Assembly: GCF_003334255.1 (NCBI RefSeq)
Contig: NZ_QOWU01000163.1
Direction: 5' to 3' (one strand)
Origin: Escherichia coli
Lineage (GTDB): Bacteria > Pseudomonadota > Gammaproteobacteria > Enterobacterales > Enterobacteriaceae
Length of the DNA stretch: 1,326 nt
This document shows, in pieces, positions 211 through 234 of the stretch. A model generated the notes under the pieces. The model saw only the letters and a program-made list of their open reading frames with translations. It had not been told where the DNA came from and did no database searches. The translations under genes were made by a program, and so were the position numbers. The stretch's first letter is position 1; each line of letters opens with the position of its first letter.

Positions 211-234
211 GGGTGCCGTCAGTCAAAGGCACCC
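211..234. other. Perfect 7-bp inverted repeat (GGGTGCC ... GGCACCC) with a 10-nt loop in the J–stf spacer; function unknown
   Basis: Plus 211..217 'gggtgcc' and 228..234 'ggcaccc' are exact reverse complements. On the minus strand the stem is followed by TTTAAC, which is only a weak U-tract, so it may be a second weak terminator, an RNA stability element or a protein-binding palindrome. Confidence 0.35.

Follow-up and report, generated by a model that had tools for sequence, protein, structure and literature searches.

A perfect hairpin in the J–stf spacer of an Escherichia coli prophage is very probably the scar of a deleted hok/sok cassette

The hok mRNA of plasmid R1 is kept inert at full length by a long-distance stem in which its 5′ end (tac) pairs with its 3′ UTR (fbi), and it is activated when slow 3′ processing cuts off fbi (PMC9841398). 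The hokW-sokW system of Stx prophages (Sp5, 933W) is intact and experimentally active (PMC8621323). [quoted passage not shown] The locus described below is a further case of hok/sok decay. The chromosomal hok loci of E. coli K-12 are decayed too: Pedersen and Gerdes reportedly described in 1999 their inactivation by IS elements, point mutations and rearrangements. The decay of hok loci is already known, but neither this remnant nor the way in which a long-range stem became a local hairpin seems to have been catalogued.

The window, by which we mean the whole stretch of 1,326 nucleotides that was analysed (E. coli contig NZ_QOWU01000163.1, assembly GCF_003334255.1), contains a hairpin whose two arms are homologues of the tac and fbi elements of R1 hok. 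The intact relatives of the window share with the R1 system a 5′ terminus that pairs with an element of the 3′ UTR, after which come UUUA… and an intrinsic terminator (PMC9841398). The arm sequences differ through compensatory changes (GGGUGCC/GGCACCC in the window, GGCGCUU/AAGCGCC in R1); moreover, the window lacks mok, hok and sok, and the distance between its two elements is 10 nt where it would otherwise exceed 330 nt. The closest sequence subfamily consists of hokW-sokW and other prophage hok cassettes (PMC8621323), in which the 5′ end, GGGTGCCTTT(C)GGCTGA, and the fbi element, GGCACCC, are identical to those of the window. Members of this subfamily are also found among the tail-end accessory genes of lambdoid prophages, for example beside a lom-family gene at locus L010. 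In contrast to hokW-sokW, the window locus is an internally deleted remnant, and it differs from the decayed K-12 loci in that one clean microhomology deletion appears to have taken both toxin and antitoxin and to have fused the ends of the mRNA into a hairpin.

Both genes in the window are on the minus strand. The C-terminal 335 codons of the tail-tip protein J occupy 313-1320, the gene running past the window edge, and the N-terminus of the side tail fibre gene stf occupies 1-128; RefSeq names the two gpJ and "prophage tail fiber N-terminal domain-containing protein". Between the TGA that ends J (315-313) and the ATG of stf (128-126) lies a spacer of 184 nt (312-129). The initial annotation had described an exact 7-bp inverted repeat, GGGTGCC-N10-GGCACCC, about 80 bp past the J stop. 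We confirmed its coordinates, 211-234, and measured the distance from the TGA to the start of the hairpin as 78 nt. On the plus strand GGGTGCC (211-217) and GGCACCC (228-234) enclose the loop GTCAGTCAAA (218-227), and all seven pairs are of the Watson-Crick type; on the minus strand the 5′ arm is 234-228, the loop 227-218 and the 3′ arm 217-211. The RNA structure prediction that the initial annotation had proposed bears the hairpin out: it is present in both the minimum free energy (MFE) and the centroid folds of the whole spacer, whichever strand is folded. Folded alone as RNA, it has a predicted energy of -13.9 kcal/mol for the minus strand (z -4.1) and of -14.8 kcal/mol for the plus strand.

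The inverted repeat is real, yet on statistics alone it is not beyond chance. Dinucleotide shuffling, scored for perfect stems of at least 7 bp with a loop of 3-12 nt, gave 0.83 stems per shuffled window (0.22 for GC-rich stems) and 0.115 per shuffled spacer of 185 nt, with one or more in 9% of the shuffled spacers. Statistics would not single the repeat out; its meaning comes from homology.

Related J–stf spacers are informative here. At L003, L002, L006 and L007 the spacer is about 480 bp long and has an annotated Hok/Gef gene, a spacer type that is present in about 119 E. coli genomes. The 46-amino-acid product matches Pfam PF01848 (HOK_GEF) with an E value of 8e-10 and also matches the NCBIfam Hok models, in every case under the curated cut-off. 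The region 5′ of hok in L003 matches Rfam RF01794 (hok 5′ region/Sok target) at 62.5 bits, the gathering score being 59, and position 1 of the model falls on GGGUGCC. The same arms accompany hok in four unrelated contexts: the J–stf cassettes, loci adjacent to a P2-like ogr gene (L009, L011-L013), a chromosomal locus (L014), and the EDL933 locus L010 beside an Ail/Lom-family (lom) gene, whose cassette is also that of phage 933W and other Stx phages. In each, GGGTGCC opens the RF01794 match and GGCACCC stands in the 3′ UTR, some 60-70 nt past the hok stop, where it pairs with mRNA nucleotides 1-7. The variants GGCACCG, GGCACCT and CGCACCC of this 3′ element occur, and a terminator follows 25-35 nt beyond it. 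Because the arms and their flanks accompany hok everywhere, the arms are located inside the cassette and not at insertion borders. The junction between J and stf in lambdoid prophages is, on this evidence, a resident site for hok cassettes.

The arms of the intact cassettes are the two ends of a long-range stem. In RNAduplex calculations the first 20-22 nt of the transcript paired with the 3′ UTR element at every intact locus (-29 to -36 kcal/mol), and when the full L003 hok mRNA was folded the MFE and centroid structures were both closed by this 5′–3′ stem (z -7.7), with an open linker and then the terminator after it. A locus of the R1 type has other but mutually complementary sequences at these positions, GGCGCUUG/CAAGCGCC. 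In a small alignment built by hand three pairs had changed on both sides and slid registers lost the pairing; this covariation comes from one R1-type sequence, the 7-bp stem being invariant within the subfamily. A DNA search of plasmids for divergent hok types had returned the same subfamily only, and the R1-type loci were obtained through the Hok protein; two of the four that were fetched were IS-disrupted or too divergent for RF01794. Thus the 5′ arm of the hairpin in the window is tac (mRNA nucleotides 1-7), its loop is nucleotides 8-17 and its 3′ arm is fbi. The suggestion that the complementarity is connected with RNA is borne out in this form, the arms being the hok mRNA 5′ end and an element of its 3′ UTR. 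They are separated by about 345 nt in the related J–stf spacers and by 10 nt in the window.

The difference was located precisely by aligning the window, L015 and PhiR12_1 (PV340549) against six cassettes, four of them intact and two partly deleted. An upstream block, consisting of the promoter region and mRNA nucleotides 1-20 (GGGUGCCUUUG…), aligns from GATTGCCGGAA through GGGTGCCTTTG(A/G)CTGA(C/T)GGC. A downstream block, consisting of the 3′ UTR element …GGCACC(C)UUUAACACC and the terminator, aligns from ACC(C/G)TTTAACACC through CGCAGxCCGGGxAACCGGTACTGCGG-U8 and on into stf. The middle of the cassette is absent from the window, in which GGGTGCCTTTGACTGACGGC is joined directly to ACCCTTTAACACC. 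In the L003 spacer GATGGC occurs exactly twice, at 2670-2675 and 3001-3006; these copies are 331 bp apart and form both edges of the gap. Compared with the intact cassette the window lacks 331 bp and keeps one copy (220-215). A gap that is edged by a direct repeat, with two copies in the intact loci and one here, is the signature of a microhomology deletion. The homologous promoter region (GATTGCCGGAA…TACA(T/G)T) and the terminator are found in the genomic position that they occupy at the intact loci, and the complementary tac and fbi sequences, GGGUGCC/GGCACCC, are identical to those of the intact cassettes. The spacer has no Hok/Gef reading frame (PF01848), the Hok-coding region of the relatives being missing from the alignment, and RF01794 gave no match on the window even at E values up to 10, only model positions 1 to about 20 having survived. 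The sole Rfam match on the window at that limit was a snoRNA inside J, which we regard as spurious.

A separate deletion, of 103 bp, has removed the 3′ part of hok in strains LZSFT34 and M18 (L004 2960 and L008 581, compared with L003 2895-3006). It lies between the imperfect repeats CCGGATAGC and CCGGATGGC and shares its 3′ repeat and endpoint with the 331-bp deletion. Since it is independent and uses the same 3′ repeat, the cassette decays in this way more than once, and the fbi-proximal repeat may be a deletion hotspot. Plasmid loci of the R1 type illustrate another route of hok decay: L016 (1-240) and L017 (1-279) are disrupted or flanked by IS150 and ISKpn28, and their 5′ regions now match RF01794 poorly.

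What is left of the cassette in the window can be read along the minus strand. The promoter-region remnant (241-276) has a -35 homologue, TTGCCG (276-271), and a -10 homologue, TACATT (246-241); a 7-nt insertion between them has widened the spacing to 24 nt and created a weak alternative pair, ACGACA-16-CATTAT (8/12). Then come the retained mRNA nucleotides 1-20, GGGUGCCUUUGACUGACGGC (215-234), the first seven of which are the tac arm and correspond to RF01794 positions 1-7; the exact 5′ end of the hok mRNA is our estimate. The deletion junction is the surviving direct-repeat copy, GACGGC (215-220; GATGGC in intact relatives), and it overlaps the fbi (fold-back inhibitory) element GGCACCC (211-217). 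The linker from fbi to the terminator, UUUAACACCAGCC… (176-210), is about 78% identical to that of the intact cassettes. The intrinsic terminator of the cassette (142-175) consists of a stem-loop (175-150) and a U8 tract (149-142), with a predicted energy of -20.9 kcal/mol (z -6.4); it is the first hairpin of the spacer and it ends 3 nt ahead of the stf Shine-Dalgarno sequence GGGAG. In the intact loci fbi is followed by homologous terminators, so expression of stf from upstream promoters must cross a leftover hok terminator. By analogy with lambda late transcription, a Q-modified polymerase would pass it.

Several other identities for the hairpin were considered and set aside. In being GC-rich, intergenic and downstream of a gene, the stem-loop resembles an intrinsic terminator, but it has a 10-nt loop and no U-tract (the sense-strand sequence after it is UUUAACAC), and a terminator scan was silent on it and flagged the neighbouring hairpin at 163-148, with its U8 tail. 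The initial annotation had also judged it not to be a typical terminator, and we agree: a separate hairpin, at 175-142, is the spacer's real terminator, and this hok terminator, retained 35 nt downstream, is probably the sole terminator-like element. The TTGACT of the minus-strand loop (226-221), for which no suitable -10 element had been seen, does not make a sigma-70 promoter, the best hexamer at 15-19 nt matching TATAAT at 2/6 positions. A promoter scan reported no site on the window, but the same scan missed the hok and sok promoters of L003, so its silence here is weak evidence. A dispersed palindromic repeat (REP/BIME-like) was rejected, the junction and both flanks occurring in this J–stf haplotype only. 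The Pas sRNA preprint offered no link to the J–stf spacer.

The collapsed allele is distributed as a single lineage. The whole window is present in 29 E. coli genomes at 98-99.8% identity, and in five PhiR12 phages; a further 9 IMG/VR contigs and 38 metagenome contigs carry the allele, with the hairpin invariant throughout. A sensitive search with the spacer found it at full length in the same 29 E. coli genomes only, while its downstream half is about 78% identical to unannotated DNA of other prophages and of phage 1720a-02. All collapsed copies belong to one haplotype, at least 97.8% identical throughout, and from these sequences the deletion looks like a single and fairly recent event. Complete E. 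coli genomes, IMG/VR, one-per-species genomes and metagenomes yielded no intact ancestor with window-type flanks. IMG/VR was scanned with the junction and with each of its flanks, 5′ and 3′, and every scan brought back the same 9 collapsed loci; the one-per-species genomes gave no true match (one chance match was in a cyanobacterial MAG); and all 38 metagenome contigs were collapsed. A degenerate pattern that allowed GGCTGATGGCACC detected no independent origin of the same junction in IMG/VR. In the absence of such an ancestor, the direction of the event, deletion and not insertion, rests on the comparison with the intact loci. To the check that the initial annotation had proposed, conservation of the palindrome in related J–stf spacers, the answer is specific: both arms have been kept, while the local hairpin is confined to the one deletion haplotype. 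IMG genome 643348545 has three different prophage contigs (L026, L027, L028) with an identical collapsed spacer, and several RefSeq genomes match the window in 2-5 places; these multiple copies per genome indicate that the module has spread among co-resident prophages.

From these data we conclude that the hairpin is very probably the scar of a 331-bp deletion that removed a hok/sok cassette from between J and stf. The homology of the arms and flanks, the boundaries of the gap and the 5′–3′ complementarity in intact relatives are direct observations. The mechanism that we propose starts from an ancestral hok mRNA whose 5′ end, GGGUGCC…, would have paired with …GGCACCC in the 3′ UTR to give an inert fold-back until 3′ processing removed fbi. 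Two copies of a 6-bp direct repeat, GA[T/C]GGC, would have been present, one at mRNA nucleotides 15-20 and the other overlapping fbi, and a deletion between them, probably by slippage or illegitimate recombination at the microhomology, would have excised 331 bp, starting at mRNA nucleotide 21 and running up to fbi. With them would have gone the mok and hok reading frames, the sok gene with its promoter, and the target of Sok. Ends that had been selected to pair across more than 330 nt would then have come to lie 10 nt apart, forming a perfect 7-bp local stem. A speculative idea is that pairing between tac and fbi might itself bring the direct repeats close to each other, which would make hok cassettes prone to clean self-deletion of this kind. 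As the local hairpin is found only in one deletion haplotype, the complementarity was selected as a long-range tac/fbi closure and not as a local J–stf element. With no hok, mok or sok in the window the toxin–antitoxin system is dead: the spacer is a hok/sok remnant, or pseudo-locus, and not a functional member of the family, and the hairpin is a relic of the best-studied fold-back among type I toxin mRNAs and not a new regulatory element. Most likely it has no selected function now and simply folds, passively, as a stem-loop where the late transcript runs from J to stf.

The alternatives differ in what they make of the arms. It is conceivable, at a low probability, that the remnant is still expressed as an RNA of about 95 nt (G234 to U142), transcribed from the residual hok promoter and recruited either as an stf leader or as a small regulatory RNA of the prophage; it would have a 5′ hairpin, a 35-nt single-stranded linker and the U8 terminator. 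The predicted fold agrees with this (two hairpins and an open linker, -35.2 kcal/mol, z -4.5), and the alternative pair ACGACA-16-CATTAT scores level with the L003 hok promoter and stops 6 nt short of the G that opens the hairpin. On the other side, the 7-nt insertion has broken the canonical -35/-10 pair, the promoter scan is silent at this position and Rfam provides no match. The arms have remained unchanged despite about 22% divergence in the flanks, but the collapsed copies are nearly identical to one another, which makes their conservation uninformative. Against the sampled intact J–stf cassettes, to which the remnant is about 78% identical, both 7-nt arms are unchanged, the probability of no change in 14 nt at 22% divergence being about 0.03. 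The simplest explanation is that the divergence took place while the ancestor was still a functional hok allele, before the recent deletion; selection on the hairpin after the deletion would also fit. Were the remnant RNA real, it would be a case in which a type I toxin–antitoxin locus had decayed and given rise to a regulatory RNA. The same near-identity of the copies bears on the possibility, very unlikely in our judgement, that selection maintains the hairpin as a cis-element of the late J–stf transcript, either an RNase III/RNase E processing site or a barrier that stabilises the mRNA. Its stem is stable, is present in the centroid fold of the spacer and is invariant in every copy found, but that invariance is the property of one recent haplotype that is at least 97.8% identical throughout. 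Furthermore, classical RNase III sites need a stem longer than 7 bp, and related prophages have no local hairpin at this place, their arms flanking a whole hok cassette. Neither an RNA processing or stability element nor a palindromic protein-binding site, the two roles that the initial annotation had entertained, is supported.

The opposite polarity, in which the hairpin would be the ancestral empty site and the hok cassette would have been inserted into its loop in other lineages, draws on our failure to find an intact ancestor with window-type flanks. It is already largely refuted, and hok is very unlikely to have entered a hairpin that was there before it: in four unrelated contexts hok is accompanied by the arms, by promoter homology upstream of them and by the terminator downstream, the window itself keeps hok promoter homology upstream of the 5′ arm, and the repeat that bounds the gap, present twice in intact loci and once here, is a deletion signature. 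An inverted repeat that arose by chance, or a palindromic protein-binding site, in either case unrelated to hok, is almost certainly not the explanation. Shuffling does yield an equal stem in 9% of spacers, but the two arms and their two flanks are homologous to hok cassettes base for base, and the locus has neither a gene for a DNA-binding protein nor repeated operator-like copies.

Reading the hairpin as a deletion scar explains a puzzling perfect palindrome without invoking a new element. It also shows that long-range RNA pairing can leave a local hairpin once the intervening gene has been deleted, which is a warning for scans that read intergenic hairpins as regulatory signals. The hok cassettes at J–stf evidently decay by microhomology deletions, and lysogens with the collapsed allele have lost that hok/sok system.

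Some further features of these loci were observed. Three unrelated C-terminal (receptor-binding) modules of J meet the hok cassette at one point, GATTGCCGG (window 277-312, L003 2605-2619 and L004 2679-2691 were compared), and the cassette may be a conserved recombination anchor for the swapping of J tips. A third hairpin in the window (283-313, minus strand; ACAGGTGGAT…ATCCATCTGT) has 10-11 bp and a predicted energy of -13.9 kcal/mol (z -2.6); it begins within the J stop codon, is part of this particular J C-terminal module and is missing from L003-type spacers. Apart from the 211-234 hairpin, the window has a single perfect 7-bp inverted repeat, TTTATCA-N9-TGATAAA at 974-996, which is AT-rich, lies within the J coding sequence and is consistent with chance. 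In strain SCU-104 (L001 7199-8383) the stf gene downstream of the spacer is annotated as two pseudogene fragments, with DUF4376 and YadA-like genes coming after it.
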